Shown here: positions 2,512 through 23,972 of the stretch, in pieces | How positions within the stretch are numbered: the stretch's first letter is position 1 | Layout of the letters: every line of letters begins with the position of its first letter | Source: a virus | Taxonomy: Duplodnaviria > Heunggongvirae > Uroviricota > Caudoviricetes | Length of the DNA: 40,582 bases | IMG/VR virus record: IMGVR_UViG_2778261692_000003 | Span: 1-40,582 of that record | Direction: 5' to 3' (one strand) | The notes under the pieces: generated by a model | The model's input: only the letters and a program-made list of their open reading frames with translations | Told to the model about the DNA's origin: nothing | Database searches by the model: none | Program-made: the position numbers and the translations under genes

Positions 2512-4317
2512 TTAGTTCAGAATATCTGACTGACTCATAGATATAGCAGTCCAGTATCCGTAGTTTGCATCATAAGCAAATCTTATAGACCGGTGGCGCC
2601 CTGCTGCCGGGCTTGTCCATCCAGAAACTCTGAAGTCAGAAGACCAGTTTACTATTAATTCATCAGATCCAGAAATGTTATGAATAGTCATATCAATAGT
2701 CGCACCGTCTAATTTTTTTGCTACAGACGTAACATTAATTGGTGAACCAGTAGCCGACACAACACAGTATGATGATAAAAATGGGTTAATTTGCACAGTA
2801 CCATTTGATGAAATTATATTGTTGCTACGCGATGGATAAGGGTTAGTGCTTTCTTTTTTAGCTCCAGATGAAATATTGAAAATATTCTCATATGAATTTC
2901 TTAACCCGTTATCTACGATGATAGAATCGTTGCCTAAAAGATTCATACCTATTACTTTATTATCATGCGATGATGAGTCAAAATCTATACCACTGCTTAC
3001 TCCACCAATAAAGCTATTAGCATATGAGCCTTGCACCTGAATGGCTGGAGATGAATAACCAGCTTTTAGACCAATAAAGTCATTTGCATATGTTGTTTTA
3101 TGTAATAACACATCAGTTAAAGAATTAACTTCAAGATCCATGCCAATAACTGAATTCCCAACTGATTGGTTTCTATCATCAGTAGCGTGACCAAACTCAA
3201 TGCCAATATCGTTACCTTCTGATGTGCCATTTATAAATGTACAATTAGACATAAACACCCCACAAATCCCACTACCAGAGGTATGTTCAATAGTGGTATT
3301 CATGTAAGTATTTGCAGAAGACCCACGATCATTACCAGTTCCAAACTCACAATCAGATAAGATTCCGTGAACAGGGGTTGTTTGGAATGCTTCAATATTA
3401 TTACTGCATTGAATATTTTCATAGTGGCAAAGTTGGGTCCACCATTCATGAATAGCGGTCCTTGATATATTTGTCCCACGAATATTTTTGAATATACCTC
3501 CGATAACACCACGCAATGAAAGGCCATCTTTTGCGTGACCACCACCATCAAAGATAATGTTTTCAATATGTGACCCATAACCCCAGAACGAACCACTAGG
3601 CCCGCGAAGATCAATTTCCATAACATAGTCATGACTGCCACTAATGAGCTTAATGCGAGCGCCATCATCTCCATACCAAAATGCAGGACTAGTGAATGAC
3701 AACGGCTGAGATGTAAGGCAAACCCCTGCAGGTTGAACTATACGGACACCAGTATGCGCAGCAGCTACAGCAGCCTGAATTGCCACTGTGTCATCAGTTA
3801 CACCATCGCACTTAGCACCAAAATCTTTTAAGTTGATTATTTGTGCGTTTTTATCATGCTGTGTGATAGCTACCGACCCGGCAACGGGCTGTCTTACGCC
3901 AATTAATGCATCACCTTTTGAATCATCATTAATGTATTCCCCTGATTGAGATAACTGCTCTTTGAAGTCTGGACCAAACTGATCAGGGTCATACTTCAGC
4001 ACATTAGGAAAATAAAACTGCTGTGCACCATACGCATCATAAACAGCCATAGAATGGCCTTGCACGGTTACAAACTTGGCAATCTGTCCGTTATATACTG
4101 GGTAACCAGCAGCGTTAATGATGATTGGTTGAGAAACAGGAACGTGAGAGCCGTCTTCGTTCTCTACATAAACCTGAATCTGGTTTTCAGGATTTACCGG
4201 GTCAGTGTCAATTTTACCGATATAAATTTTGCCATTGGCTACGGCTTTAAAAGAACGAGCCATAGTGAAGAGTTGCGAAGGCATGCTGACCACAACATTT
4301 GCGGTGATATCTGACAT
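2512..4317 (-). CDS. Tailspike: P22 gp9-like head-binding N-domain plus divergent beta-helix receptor-binding/depolymerase domain
   Basis: Start moved to the ATG at 4317 ([17 protein letters not shown]...[27 protein letters not shown]), with GGAG upstream. This N-terminus matches P22 gp9. The downstream [20 protein letters not shown] is a pectate-lyase-like beta-helix start. GC drops after about aa 120. Confidence 0.9.
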
Positions 4318-4797: not shown

Positions 4798-7182
4798 CAG
4801 CGCATCAGACTTAGCCCCCTGAGTCAGGGCGTTAATGGCCTTTTGTGCCTGCTGCATGGCTTTCTCAAAGGCTGTTGATCCGCGTGGGGTGTTTGCCATT
4901 CGGAGCATTGCATTTCTGAATGGCTCGCTCTCATATGCGCGAGTAAGAAGTCCGTAGCTTACCGCTGCGCCAGTTGTCGCAGGGTTCATTGCTGTCCCAT
5001 ATCCGATAATGAACGGGATGGTTTGCTGCCCTGTTGGTGTTGTTACTGCCGCTTTTGCAGCCTGCTGCGTGGATTGCAGGTAGTTTTTCAATCCTTTCAG
5101 ATAAGCGGCTTCCTGACCTTTAAATGTGATGCCAGTCTGGTTTTGCAGGATGTTAAGCTGTCGAAGGAACTGGTCAGGGGAACCACCTGATTTCTCCATC
5201 GCCTTTCCAATGATGCCATTGCGCATTTGCGCCCTGCCAACACGACCAACTGAGTTATACAGCGTCTTAATTTCCGATTTGTTCTTGCTGAATAGCATGT
5301 TGTTGACAACTTCCGGCGTCAGGTCGCCTTTCATGAGAACATTCTTCAGCCTGGTATTCTTTAGTTTCGCCGCTTCGTCAGCGTAGACGGCATTGGCCTG
5401 CTGATATTTACGGAGAGTATCGTTGCCAAGATTCTGACCAATGGCACCATTGATATCGTCGGTCATTGCCTTGTAAACGCGCTGAATGGCAGCATCGGAA
5501 CGGTTTGGTAACACTGGTCGCTCCCCCTTCACGTCCATTCTGAACTGGCTGCGCAGATCGCTTAATTGCTTCAAATCCAGATTTACCGGACCATCAGGAC
5601 CAGCATTGCGAACAAGCTCATCACGATAGGACTGAAGTTTTGAAATAGTCTCGTTATCAGCAACCTTACCAAGCTTCTGCAGGTTAGATATTTCTGTATC
5701 AATCTGCTGAATTGCTCTTGCAGGCTGAATGTTTATTCCCGCCATAGCATTCTGAACCTGCTCAAGACGGTTCCCTGCAGCACGACGAATTCCTGATGTT
5801 TTCGCTTTAAGGCTGTCAATAACAACAGCTGGATCATACTCACCGAATTTATCAGCAAATCTCTGCACCAACTGGCTTCTCGCTTCCTGTTGCGTTGCTC
5901 TCATTCCGCTTGTGCCAGCCAGGGGGATATTTTCCGCTGTCGTCTGCGCCATTTTTCCGACGCGGGAAATGGGTTGTAACAGGTCTGTGGTGTGCAGAGG
6001 AACTCCTTCACGTTCTGCAAATCTGATAGCCTGTTGCGCTTCTGGTGCTATCGAACCACGAACACCACGATAAGCAGCACCTAATCCACGTCCGGCAGCG
6101 TTAATAGCACCGCCAGCCAGCACACCAACGCCTAAATCGGTGGCGAGTGCTTCCGCATCATCTTTCGCACTGTTTGCAGCAAGTGATCCAACTGCGTTTT
6201 CTGCGAGAAGGCGAGTTGCCACCTGAGCAATTCGACCAGCAAGTGTTGGTGCCTGTGCTGCCGCTCTCTCAACGCCAGCAGGAGTGAGGTAAGGCAATGC
6301 TTCAGCAAATACCCTTCCCTCTGTCGTTTGTGGAGTCAGCGCGCCTTGCTGAAGGCCAAAGTCCTGCTCTAATCCCTGCGTTGTTACTCGTGGTGCTGGT
6401 TGATATGTACCATCGCCAATGCCGAGTTTACCGCCAGCCCAAGCCGCCGCGCTTGTTACAGCATCAGTGAGTTCAGCAGGTATGTTCGCTACGTTGATTC
6501 CTGCCTGTAGTAAGCCGCGCCCGGTTTCAGCAAGTCCATTACCAAGGTCAGACATTATTCCGCCTTGCTGCTGAACAGGTTTCGGTGCGACAGAACTTAC
6601 GGGTTGAGGTGGCTGCTGACTGGCTGCCTGCTGCTCAATCTGAGCAAATGGATTATTTGGGTCTGACTGCACGCCTGATGCCGATACTTGTTCGGATGAC
6701 TGTGCTTCCAGTTGTGCAAACGGGTTGTTAGGGTCTTGCTGAGGATGTACCTTTGCAGAGGTGGCGCGCTGTTCGACTGTTGAGTCTGTCACCGGGTCAC
6801 CCGCCCATTGAGCAAAGCGATCATCAACGTAACCGCGGCCTTCAGGTCCTGGCGTATATTCACCACGCTTTGCCTTCATAACGTTGCCGGGACCGTCGTG
6901 ATAAGCCTGAAGAGCGTCACGCCAGTTACCAAACTGCTGGTACATCTTTGCCAGATAGCGCGCGCCAGCGTCAGCCTGATATTCGGGGTTTTGCATTTGC
7001 TCATCGGTATAACCCATATCACGCCATGTCCCAGGCATGACCTGAGTCAATCCTACAGCCCCGGCGGAGCTTACTGCGGCAGGGTTGTAAGAAGACTCCT
7101 TGGCACCCAGTGCAGTCATCAACCCTTCTGGCACACCGTAACGTGCGCCAGCCTGCTCTAACAAATCACGGTAATTAGCCAT
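4789..7182 (-). CDS. Ejection (DNA-transfer) protein, gp16 position, with N-terminal lytic transglycosylase (SLT) domain
   Basis: 797 aa. SLT motifs AKESSYNP (catalytic E-S), GLTQVMP and AYHDGPG lie in aa 25-100. The remainder is Gln/Ala-rich. It is the last gene of the three-gene ejection block. Confidence 0.85.
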   Translation of the reverse strand: MANYRDLLEQAGARYGVPEGLMTALGAKESSYNPAAVSSAGAVGLTQVMPGTWRDMGYTDEQMQNPEYQADAGARYLAKMYQQFGNWRDALQAYHDGPGNVMKAKRGEYTPGPEGRGYVDDRFAQWAGDPVTDSTVEQRATSAKVHPQQDPNNPFAQLEAQSSEQVSASGVQSDPNNPFAQIEQQAASQQPPQPVSSVAPKPVQQQGGIMSDLGNGLAETGRGLLQAGINVANIPAELTDAVTSAAAWAGGKLGIGDGTYQPAPRVTTQGLEQDFGLQQGALTPQTTEGRVFAEALPYLTPAGVERAAAQAPTLAGRIAQVATRLLAENAVGSLAANSAKDDAEALATDLGVGVLAGGAINAAGRGLGAAYRGVRGSIAPEAQQAIRFAEREGVPLHTTDLLQPISRVGKMAQTTAENIPLAGTSGMRATQQEARSQLVQRFADKFGEYDPAVVIDSLKAKTSGIRRAAGNRLEQVQNAMAGINIQPARAIQQIDTEISNLQKLGKVADNETISKLQSYRDELVRNAGPDGPVNLDLKQLSDLRSQFRMDVKGERPVLPNRSDAAIQRVYKAMTDDINGAIGQNLGNDTLRKYQQANAVYADEAAKLKNTRLKNVLMKGDLTPEVVNNMLFSKNKSEIKTLYNSVGRVGRAQMRNGIIGKAMEKSGGSPDQFLRQLNILQNQTGITFKGQEAAYLKGLKNYLQSTQQAAKAAVTTPTGQQTIPFIIGYGTAMNPATTGAAVSYGLLTRAYESEPFRNAMLRMANTPRGSTAFEKAMQQAQKAINALTQGAKSDALSE

Positions 7183-21508: not shown

Positions 21509-21981
21509 ACCTCAATCTCTCTGACCGTTCCGCCAGCTTCTTTGAATTTTGCAATCAGGCTGTCAGCCTTATGCTCGAACTGACCATAACCAGCCCCCGG
21601 CAGCGAAGCCCAGATATTGCTGCAACGGTCGATAGCCTGACGGATATCACCGCGATCAATCATCGGCAAAGCGCCACGTTCCTTAATCTGCTGCAGCGCA
21701 ACAGCGTCCTGGCTTTTGGGAGAGAAGTCTTTCAGGCCAAGCTGCTTACGGTAGGCATCCCACCAACGGGAAAGAAGCTGGTAACGTCCGGCTGCTGTTG
21801 ATTTGAGTTTGGGGTTTAGCGTGACAAGTTTGCGAGGGTGATCGGAGTAATCAGTGAATAGCTCACCACCTACAATGACGTCATAACCATGATTTCTGGT
21901 TTTCTGACGTCCGTTATCAGTTCCCTCTGACCACGCCAGCATATCGAGGAACGCCTTACGTTGATTATTGGTTTCCACCAT
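21505..21981 (-). CDS. R: Endolysin (lambda R transglycosylase)
   Basis: 158 aa, near-identical to my recollection of lambda R ([41 protein letters not shown]...). Confidence 0.97.
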
Positions 21982-22288
21982 CTTCTACTCCGGCTTTTTT
22001 AGCAGCGAAGCGTTTGATAAGCGAACCAATCGAGTCAGTACCGATGTAGCCGATGAACACGCTCGTTATATAAGCGAGGTTGCTACTTAGTCCGGCGAAG
22101 TCGAGAAGGTCACGAATGAACCAGGCGATAATGGCGCACATCGTTGCGTCGATTACTGTTTTTGTAAACGCACCGCCATTATATCTGCCGCGAAGGTACG
22201 CCATTGCAAACGCAAGGATTGCCCCGATGCCTTGTTCCTTTGCCGCGAGAATGGCGGCTAACAGGTCATGTTTTTCTGGCATCTTCAT
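21965..22288 (-). CDS. S: Holin/antiholin (lambda S107/S105 dual-start)
   Basis: 107 aa. [41 protein letters not shown] is identical in pattern to lambda S, including the Met1-Lys2-Met3 dual start. Confidence 0.97.
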
Positions 22289-22753
22289 GTCTTACCCCCA
22301 ATAAGGGGATTTGCTCTATTTAATTAGGAATAAGGTCGGTTACTGATAGAACAAATCCAGGCTACTGTGTTTAGTAATCAGATTTGTTCGTGACCGATAT
22401 GCACGGGCAAAACGGCATGAGGTTGTTAGCGCAGCCTCTTGCCACCCGCTTTCACGAAGGTCATGTGTAGAAGGCCGCAGCGTAACTATCACTGATGAAT
22501 TCAGGATAGCCAGTAGCTACGGCTCAGTTTGGGTTGTGCTGTTGCTGGGCGGCGATGACGCCTGTACGCATTTGGTGATCCGGTTCTGCTTCCGGTATTC
22601 GCTTAATTCAGCACAACGGAAAGAGCACTGTATGTTGCCGGGCCAGATGTCGGCTGCACAGGGAGTCATTGCCGACCCACGCCCTAAACACACTCGTAAA
22701 TGCGCTTAGGGTTGACTCCCCTGGTATCCAGTTATTCCCCGGCTGGGGATACT

Positions 22754-22801
22754 CCGCGCGACGCTAATGCGTTTCGTCCCTCATGGACTCGTCAGGCGCG
22801 C
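22754..22801 (-). ncRNA. Candidate type I hammerhead self-cleaving ribozyme in the late-operon leader
   Basis: Minus-strand RNA reads GCGCGC CUGACGA GUCC AUGAG GGAC GAAA CGC AUUA GCG UC|GCGCGG. All invariant core positions are present: C3 U4 G5 A6 G8 A9, G12 A13 A14, A15.1-U16.1 and C17. Stem II is 4 bp with G10.1-C11.1, stem III is 4 bp and stem I is 5 GC pairs. Predicted cleavage lies between plus-strand positions 22760 and 22759. Confidence 0.6.
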
Positions 22802-22817
22802 AATGCTCTTACCTGTT
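22802..22817 (-). repeat. 16-bp direct repeat copy A (5' strand of the distal clamp hairpin)
   Basis: AATGCTCTTACCTGTT on the plus strand, identical to 23053-23068. In the minus-strand RNA it pairs with 22612-22629 (about 15 bp with one mismatch and one bulge). Confidence 0.8.
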
Positions 22818-23052
22818 GTGTACCCATTATTAATCACACCGGGCCAGTGCGCCGAATTTGTTTACAAGGAGTCGGAAGACCTTGCTGACTTACAGGCTAT
22901 TACGCCGCCATCAGAACAACATCATCGTTTGCATTTATCTTTGTGGTCAGTTTCTAAAAACCCGCAAAGTCGCCAACTCTGACGAAAACTATCGTTGTGC
23001 TGCCACAACGATAAGAGCACTCGGTGCATTTAAGCCAAGCCCCATAAGGGAG

Positions 23053-23068
23053 AATGCTCTTACCTGTT
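23053..23068 (-). repeat. 16-bp direct repeat copy B (5' strand of the proximal clamp hairpin)
   Basis: AATGCTCTTACCTGTT on the plus strand. In the minus-strand RNA it pairs with 23004-23020. Confidence 0.8.
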
Positions 23069-23076
23069 ACACAGAT

Positions 23077-23137
23077 ATAAAAAATCCCGAAACCGTTATG
23101 CAGGCTCTAACTATTACCTGCGAACTGTTTCGGGATT
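23077..23137 (-). terminator. tR' (lambda late terminator, target of Q antitermination)
   Basis: Minus strand reads AATCCCGAAAC...GTTTCGGGATT followed by TTTTTAT. This matches the lambda tR' sequence as I remember it. Confidence 0.9.
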
Positions 23138-23348: not shown

Positions 23349-23972
23349 TTAACGTGTGACCGTATTCAAAATGTTGTCTGCGATTGACTCTTCTTTGTGG
23401 CATTGCACCACCAGAGCGTCATACAGCGGCTTAACAGTGCGTGACCAGGTTGGTTGGGTAAGGTTTGGTACTAGCATCGTCACAGCGCGATATGCAGCGC
23501 TTGCTGGCATTCTTGAATAACCGACGCCTTTGCATCTTCCGCATTCTTTCTCAACAACTCTCCCCCACTGCTCTGTTTTTGCTATATCAACCGCACGGCC
23601 TGTACCGTGGCAATCTCTGCATCTTGCGCCCGGCGTCGCGGCACTACGGCAATAATCCGCATAAGCGAATGTTGCGAGCACTTGCAGTACCTTAGCCTTA
23701 GTATTTCCTTCGAGCTTTGCCACACCACGGTATTTCCCCGATACCTTGTGTGCAAATTGCATCAGATAGTTGATAGCCTTTTGTTTGTCGTTCTGGCTGA
23801 GTTCGTGCTTACCGCAGAATGCAGCCATACCGAATCCGGCTTGTGATTGCGCCATCCCCATAGCAGCCATCACATCAGTACCGGAAAGAGAGTCAGAAGC
23901 CGTAGCCCGTGGTGAGTCGCTCATCATCGGGCTTTTTGGCGAATGAAATTTAGCTACGCTTTCGAGTCTCAT
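23349..23972 (-). CDS. Q: Late antiterminator Q (lambda type)
   Basis: 207 aa, with the zinc-binding CRDCHGTG...CGRCKGVG. The sequence follows lambda Q throughout. Confidence 0.97.
23672..23704 (+). promoter_or_regulatory. PaQ, cII-dependent antisense promoter inside Q
   Basis: TTGC-N6-TTGC (23672-23685), then 13 nt, then TAGTAT (23699-23704). The geometry is identical to PRE at 30001-30033. Confidence 0.6.

Follow-up and report, generated by a model that had tools for sequence, protein, structure and literature searches.

A predicted hammerhead ribozyme in a lambda-like late leader, probably one unit with a mobile, double-pseudoknotted phage RNA

A 48-nt stretch in the late leader of a lambda-like prophage raises the question of whether a hammerhead ribozyme is encoded there and, if so, what it would be for. 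The stretch lies on the minus strand at 22754..22801 of a viral sequence of 40,582 nucleotides (IMGVR_UViG_2778261692_000003), which was analysed as a whole and is called the window below. The original prediction described it as a self-cleaving motif that would separate the leader from the late mRNA. Our analysis, which is a comparison of sequences, gives a probability of about three in four that the motif is a genuine hammerhead united with a small RNA of phages that is horizontally mobile and had not been described before. The window features described below are all on the minus strand.

The minus strand from 22801 to 22754 (48 nt) reads GCGCGCCUGACGAGUCCAUGAGGGACGAAACGCAUUAGCGUCGCGCGG, identical to the earlier reading, and every core position named there was present in the window. 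The motif is of type I, with a complete core and three stems that close as described. In the sequence, the core C3-A9 (CUGACGA) occupies 22795-22789 and G12 A13 A14 occupies 22775-22773. Stem I has 5 bp (22800-22796/22759-22755), stem II has 4 bp and the loop AUGAG (22788-22785/22779-22776), and stem III has 4 bp including the A15.1-U16.1 pair and the loop AUUA (22772-22769/22764-22761). With 5, 4 and 4 bp the stems are minimal, and each is supported both by the sequence and by covariation. The cleavage nucleotide C17 is at 22760, which places the predicted scissile bond between 22760 and 22759. A 3-bp extension of stem I that had also been proposed was not retained, because its flanks are used elsewhere. 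According to the comparative data, the 3' flank GAGUAUCC is part of helix H1 of an attached domain described below. For the 5' flank AGAGCAUUG, the pairing partner is the distal arm of a long hairpin (22630..22612).

The gene order on the minus strand is NinG, a phosphatase, Q (23972..23349), a gap of 1,061 nt, S (22288..21965), R and Rz, and the region is 97% identical to lambda on either side. The tR' terminator was assigned to 23079..23136 by its ~96-97% identity to lambda. The distances given earlier were correct: the motif is ~275 nt past tR' and ~466 nt before the start codon of S (22288), on the late-transcript strand and within the read-through (Q-antiterminated) transcripts downstream of tR'. 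The segment 23052..22631 of the window (422 nt) stands in place of lambda 44806-44843 (38 nt). In lambda, tR' is followed by a long imperfect hairpin composed of CACAACAGGUAAGAGCAUUG, a 37-nt loop and then CAGUGCUCUUUCCGUUGUG. Copy 1 of this hairpin in the window (23005..23068), with a loop of 28 nt, is the counterpart of the lambda hairpin right after tR'. Copy 2 has the 5' arm CACAACAGGUAAGAGCAUU at 22802..22820, identical to lambda 44787-44806, and the 3' arm CAGUGCUCUUUCCGUUGUG at 22612..22630, recognized by comparison with lambda and in the minimum free energy (MFE) fold. The arms of copy 2 pair in the MFE fold, and the "loop" that they enclose is a 170-nt cassette (22800..22631) in which the hammerhead comes first. 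In Enterobacter phage EhYP and at loci L008, L012 and L030 the cassette is bordered by these arms as well.

The long hairpin (CACAACAGGUAAGAGCAYUG ... CAGUGCUCUUUCCGUUGUG; lambda 44787-44880) is also found at the 3' end of a tmRNA-like tag element in many phages. In the loop, which is hypervariable, there are either unrelated sequences of 28-38 nt or the hammerhead cassette of 170 nt. From these sequences the hairpin looks like a preferred site of insertion or recombination, or a processing site, possibly of RNase III.

In the window, the tag element (~190 nt, 22821..22993) lies between the two hairpin copies and is context, not a part of the ribozyme. Its translation gives a start-less frame, ANDDVVLMAA and a stop codon (22932..22900), preceded by AUAAAU. 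The E. coli ssrA tag is ANDENYALAA. Of 50,697 phage records, 762 carried the element; they come from unrelated families, with P1, HK633, Ackermannviridae, Ounavirinae and N4-like phages among them, and the tag changes conservatively across these records (ANDDVVLMAA, ANEEMYLAVA, ANDSEVLMAA, ANDNVFLAVA, ANDDLMMVAA). It has covarying helices and no recognisable acceptor stem; ARAGORN called no tmRNA in it, the Rfam tmRNA_permuted model gave 26-27 bits against a threshold of 47, and no description of it was found in the literature searched. In P1 (L256, record 68791-68976) the element lies in the leader of the ban operon, ahead of tRNA-Asn and tRNA-Thr. It starts at the end of the annotated "dicF-like region" and is outside the P1 annotation.

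The ribozyme cannot be called a general feature of lambdoid late leaders: lambda is without the module, which was carried by 15 of 5,426 complete E. coli genomes and by 4 of 50,697 phage records. In E. coli the copies are unannotated and occupy the interval from Q to the holin gene of lambdoid prophages. E. coli A35 (NZ_CP028740, 1,844,179-1,844,348) is one lysogen with the module. That no ribozyme had been described at this position agrees with our searches, since PGAP annotates none and none was mentioned in the open-access literature searched.

We examined how readily such a motif would arise by chance. A descriptor of the type I hammerhead matched once in the 40.6-kb window, at 22754..22801, and did not match in 300 dinucleotide shuffles, relaxed stem lengths included. 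The MFE fold of a 221-nt context retained all three hammerhead stems (z = -4.0), and the isolated 48-mer folded no better than its shuffles (z = -0.68). A scan of the whole window with Rfam at gathering thresholds gave no match. With Hammerhead_1 (RF00163) the motif scored 24.7 bits (E = 0.0011 in a 551-nt search) in an end-to-end match to the model, against a gathering threshold of 34, which is a curation cut-off and not a biochemical criterion. Its relatives scored 23-31 bits with RF00163, RF00008 or RF02275, below the gathering threshold in every member tested. A covariance model built here (R1) gave 99.4 bits at the motif, its sole significant match in the window (E<=1). The original prediction had named a sub-threshold Rfam score as a refutation and proposed covariation in homologues as a further test; formally the score falls on the adverse side (24.7 versus 34), yet the covariation turned out clearly positive, with compensatory changes in stems I, II and III.

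The relatives show how strongly the motif is preserved. Among 39 distinct ribozyme-bearing homologues, GAAA and the A15.1-U16.1 pair were present in all, CUGANGA in 38 and the G10.1-C11.1 pair in 34. Position 17 was C in 22, A in 15 and U in 2 homologues, and never G. Compensatory changes were observed in 2 of 5 pairs of stem I (92% of alignment cells paired), 3 of 4 pairs of stem II (89%) and 2 of 4 pairs of stem III (100%), compared with 32-45% of cells paired in slid controls. Judged by these patterns, the hammerhead is clearly under selection in the members that bear it, and sequence, structure and covariation together identify the motif as a genuine representative of the hammerhead class, its cleavage being a prediction. 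The sub-threshold Rfam score and the indifferent folding of the isolated 48-mer are what one would expect if the motif were a chance or decayed hammerhead-like sequence without a catalytic role. Such an origin is highly improbable given that none of the 300 shuffled windows contained such a motif, that all three stems show compensatory changes, and that the core is invariant, with position 17 never G, throughout the 39 diverged homologues, which represent many phage types and six or more bacterial phyla.

Comparison of the homologues also changed the view of what the motif belongs to. Instead of a free-standing 48-nt ribozyme, we found an insert in helix P1 of a conserved, pseudoknotted RNA of ~125 nt (22634..22759), the 5' end of which (GCGCGGAG...) is that of the predicted downstream cleavage product. 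The helices of this domain were judged from pair counts on two alignments, A1 and A4. H1 (GUAUCC/GGAUAC) is formed by 22752-22747 and 22729-22724. H2 (22743-22738/22642-22637) pairs the H1 loop with the 3' end and makes a pseudoknot with H1. H3 is formed by 22721-22714 and 22667-22660, and H4 (22711-22701/22692-22682) is an inner, optional hairpin. H5 (22676-22671/22654-22649) encloses the 3' strand of H3 and makes a pseudoknot with it. Helix P1 thus meets two interlocked pseudoknots, H1/H2 and H3/H5, at a junction; P1 is the hammerhead stem I, and the hammerhead core with stems II and III occupies the P1 loop.

In 22 aligned full modules, 95.7% of cells paired, compared with 77.5% in shuffles and 32-45% in slid controls, and compensatory changes were found in 31 of 50 pairs, hammerhead stems I, II and III included. 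In alignment A4, made of 36 diverse cores, 99.1% of cells paired (70% in shuffles, 35-48% in slid controls), 22 of 26 pairs were compensatory, and the covariation score was 0.74 versus 0.17. The strand of the domain was fixed by an invariant G.U pair in A4. About 40 positions of the domain are invariant, with the words GCGCGGA, GAAUAAC, CAG, GCGUGGG, UGCAG and CAUCU. E-value scans of the window region and 20 diverse loci with Rfam 15 (4,227 covariance models) gave nothing on the domain, and no description of the composite of hammerhead and domain was found in the open-access literature searched. What is new here, as the alignments show, is a hammerhead with a constant, covariation-supported partner RNA that is absent from Rfam 15.

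Several known RNAs were considered for the domain and rejected. A tRNA-like or tmRNA acceptor piece, with stem I as the acceptor stem, does not fit: the third P1 pair is G-C in place of G3.U70, T-loop and CCA are absent, and the upstream flank shows no conservation. In neither the window nor the module did ARAGORN call a tRNA or tmRNA, and the Rfam tmRNA matches fall only on the separate tag element upstream. An HDV-like, pistol-like or RNase P P4-like core and the known riboswitches were dismissed on the order of the helices and the lack of an Rfam match. YrlA (RF02553) had no match on the domain in any locus; the sole YrlA-like match (45 bits, with a threshold of 69) was at L310, on a distinct RNA whose end is 19 nt upstream of the domain.

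The family was found in two circular permutations. Type A, the form in the window, has its ends at the P1/H2 junction, and type B has them in H4 or H3. In type B, H4', GCGUGGG, H5, H3', H5', CAUCU and H2' come in this order upstream of the hammerhead, and the 5' half comes downstream. The type B hammerhead joins H2' to GCGCGGAG, and therefore its cleavage would yield two RNA pieces that H2, H3 and H4 hold together. The 46 distinct cores were divided into 17 of type A, all with a hammerhead, 22 of type B with a hammerhead, and 7 of type B in which no intact hammerhead is present. In six of these seven a linker of 2-37 nt takes its place, and the remaining one has a degenerate hammerhead core. 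In several of them, for example L299, L300, L310 and L315, the linker is able to form a small hairpin with GCGGA or GCGCGG, and GCGGA pairs with the linker in a shifted register (UCCGC-AGGC-GCGGA). Because 7 of the 46 cores lack an intact ribozyme, we regard the domain as an autonomous RNA class in which the hammerhead is a common insert of the P1 loop, and to which a nick or a free 5' end is not essential.

The two permutations also differ in the ribozyme itself. The stem II loop AGUAACGC is common to many type B members, whereas the stem II loops of type A vary; the conserved loop may dock on the domain. A tertiary contact of stem I with the stem II loop is needed for fast cleavage by hammerheads at physiological Mg2+. 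In type A members we saw no conserved loop-loop pairing of this kind, and in the window no such contact was identified. The 3' strand of stem I, GCGCG(GA), is almost invariant across members.

Pattern scans of viral, metagenomic and genomic collections gave 73 loci in total for the 46 distinct cores, with hosts in Proteobacteria, Firmicutes, Actinobacteria, Chloroflexi and Patescibacteria. A pattern of the 5'-half words gave 0 loci in genome contigs, and the matches of the 14-mer GCGCGGAGTATCCC and of a hammerhead-anchored gapped pattern were almost all random and GC-rich. The 170-nt cassette was 97% identical in a T7-like Enterobacter phage, where it again sits in the long hairpin and separates the capsid terminator from the tail tubular gene, and 80% identical in Pectobacterium and Dickeya phages, where it lies directly before tRNA-Met. 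In several phage lineages the RNA is directly flanked by tRNAs, in arrays of 13-27 tRNAs with spacers of 0-13 nt. Copies from Firmicutes and Patescibacteria have their own promoter (TTGACA-17-TATNNT) and an intrinsic terminator, and other copies are just 3' of terminators in late or structural operons.

A gene for an RtcB RNA ligase (PF01139, E = 1.5e-113) adjoins the module in two lineages, whose RtcBs are 42% identical. An obligatory partnership with RtcB was ruled out by 14 other RtcB loci that are without the module, two of them with a 98% identical RtcB, and the link is therefore lineage-specific and not general. Loci L082 and L257 were compared with L258 and L259, which have a 98% identical RtcB. 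The type B module of ~160 nt is cleanly present in the former, between a terminator and the ribosome-binding site of rtcB, and absent from the latter, a sequence difference which shows a recent gain or loss of the cassette. Since near-identical phages, and likewise lambda and the window, differ by its presence or absence, the cassette moves independently.

Other RNA-related genes accompany hammerhead-less members. The segment 99-2300 of L310 (IMGVR_UViG_3300034152_000478) holds a Ro60/Rsr homologue (TROVE and Ro60-vWA), a tRNA, the YrlA-like RNA and the hammerhead-less domain, which is followed by an RNase H gene. L300 (IMGVR_UViG_3300045837_000152), on a contig classed as viral, has a bacterial class A RNase P RNA (2968-3382, 266 bits) in an array of 27 tRNAs, and the hammerhead-less domain of that array is directly between tRNA-Lys and tRNA-Gly. 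The L300 form represents the minimal core, of ~108 nt. This company of tRNA arrays, RtcB, Ro60 with Y RNA, RNase P RNA and tmRNA-like RNA points to a place of the domain in the biology of tRNA or RNA repair.

Two further loci were recorded for their small RNAs. At L152 (JACCDR010171026.1) the module and a tRNA-Ser are followed by an RprA-like sRNA (608-701, 63.9 bits against a threshold of 70), and the three make up an array of small non-coding RNAs on a phage-like contig. On the viral contig of L311, which also carries a type A module, ARAGORN called a tRNA with a CUA anticodon at 5067-5141 (labelled tRNA-Pyl; possibly an amber suppressor).

In the window, the hammerhead would cleave the Q-antiterminated late transcript between C22760 and G22759. 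The upstream piece would end in a 2',3'-cyclic phosphate, and GCGCGGAG... would begin with a 5'-OH (G22759). The 19-bp outer hairpin would keep the pieces paired, and therefore we infer that the product would be a nicked, compact RNA within the late leader. The primary role of the ribozyme would be to provide a defined 5' end or a nick for the domain RNA, the other ends of which would be set by flanking tRNA-processing enzymes, a terminator or the outer hairpin. As a side effect, the leader would be physically severed from the lysis/morphogenesis mRNA. The separation of leader and late mRNA put forward in the original prediction thus stands as a predicted consequence of an active ribozyme, and is probably not the reason for its presence, because members in tRNA arrays, members that are stand-alone genes and members without a ribozyme argue against it as the selected function.

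If processing of late mRNA were nevertheless the purpose, the ribozyme would sever the pR' leader, and the domain would stay on the mRNA as a cap-like 5'-OH fold that tunes stability or translation. The motif is indeed on every Q-antiterminated transcript. Many relatives closely follow an intrinsic terminator and precede an ORF by 20-60 nt, as in EhYP, where the ORF encodes tail tubular protein A, in L082, where it is rtcB, and in L011, L020 and L134. Moreover, the processing of long phage transcripts has been suggested before for prophage hammerheads that flank genes (PMC3088659). We consider this account rather unlikely, however, because the RNA also occurs in tRNA arrays with 0-13 nt spacers and no downstream ORF, in stand-alone copies with their own promoter and terminator, and in hammerhead-less forms. 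In addition, ~40 invariant nucleotides and two pseudoknots exceed the needs of a stabilising 5' hairpin, and lambda and most lambdoid phages do without the module. In a different proposal, the domain senses a metabolite, a tRNA or a protein and controls cleavage through P1/stem I, like engineered aptazymes. Ribozyme and domain are connected through stem I, and the three-way junction where they meet is 5 bp away from the core. The 3' strand of stem I is nearly invariant though only its pairing should matter, there being no known catalytic reason for fixed nucleotides in a hammerhead stem I (PMC10085705). The shifted register of GCGGA and the linker in hammerhead-less members indicates that alternative P1 pairings exist, and the conserved stem II loop AGUAACGC of many type B members suggests a docking contact. 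An allosteric ribozyme is quite unlikely all the same: no ligand or alternative "off" structure was identified, locations in tRNA arrays and stand-alone genes are atypical for riboswitches, and the hammerhead-less members have no obvious expression platform.

A more specific suggestion, tentative and rather unlikely, is that the composite is a self-nicking phage RNA that enters a bacterial RNA-repair pathway; in a variant of it, the domain would be a sensor and the RNA the first natural allosteric hammerhead. The ribozyme would produce a scaffolded nick with the same 2',3'-cyclic-phosphate and 5'-OH ends as a tRNA cut by an anticodon nuclease. Nicked tRNAs ending in 2',3'-cyclic phosphate are ligands of RtcR and substrates of RtcB (PMC7790460, PMC10159003). 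A role in RNA repair is an attractive hypothesis because hammerhead cleavage would give the ends that RtcB acts on and that RtcR-activating nicked tRNAs carry. The nicked RNA could be an inducer of RtcR-RtcBA, a substrate or regulator of a phage RtcB, or a decoy. The RtcR-activating region of Gifsy-1 (PMC9879122) was considered as a copy of the module and rejected, as it is in the immunity/replication segment and not in the Q-S leader.

Our main reading, a genuine hammerhead united with a mobile phage RNA, can be placed beside known systems. Like the type I hammerheads of RF00163, the motif has the full core, three helices, H17 in place and loop-closed stems II and III, and in type A members stem I bears the ends of the RNA. 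It differs in that the 5-bp stem I runs directly into the three-way junction of a 125-nt domain, in its Rfam score below the threshold and in the near invariance of the stem I 3' strand; in type B there is no open hammerhead stem, because the ends sit in the attached domain. Hammerheads described in prophages and phages (PMC3088659) are likewise intergenic, on long transcripts, and proposed to process them. They are free-standing and often paired around genes, whereas that of the window is single and an integral insert in a larger conserved RNA, and in the main text of that report we found no mention of an enterobacterial or lambdoid hammerhead. The HDV-like theta ribozymes (PMC10879173) are also small self-cleaving ribozymes in phage tRNA regions with a proposed part in the maturation of neighbouring RNA; they are of a different class and flank tRNAs, whereas here the ribozyme is inside a helix of a non-tRNA, pseudoknotted partner.

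Two-piece (circularly permuted) tmRNA and other permuted RNA genes offer another parallel, in which one fold is encoded in two gene orders and the processed permuted form would act as two base-paired pieces. The present domain has no sequence or structural homology to tmRNA, and its processing is predicted to be autocatalytic. Nicked tRNAs (PMC7790460, PMC10159003) are alike in the predicted chemistry of the ends and in the topology of a nicked structured RNA, and family members are found beside rtcB, beside rsr/YrlA and among tRNAs. Unlike nicked tRNAs, the domain is not tRNA-like by ARAGORN or Rfam, and the hammerhead-less members cannot nick themselves.

Hammerheads have been known in prophages since 2011, and their function there is still a proposal (PMC3088659). 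Our result would turn such an orphan ribozyme into a step in the biogenesis of a specific RNA. The permutation, the optional loss of the ribozyme and the company of tRNA, RtcB, Ro60 and RNase P point to RNA repair or tRNA biology during infection; if the self-nicking roles are true, they would help phages to counter tRNA-cleaving defences. If cleavage is efficient, the late mRNA of these prophages would begin with a 5'-OH and a structured RNA, and such a start, if true, would bear on models of late gene expression. Since a lambda-like prophage of E. coli has one member between tR' and S, the hypothesis is open to standard lambda genetics.
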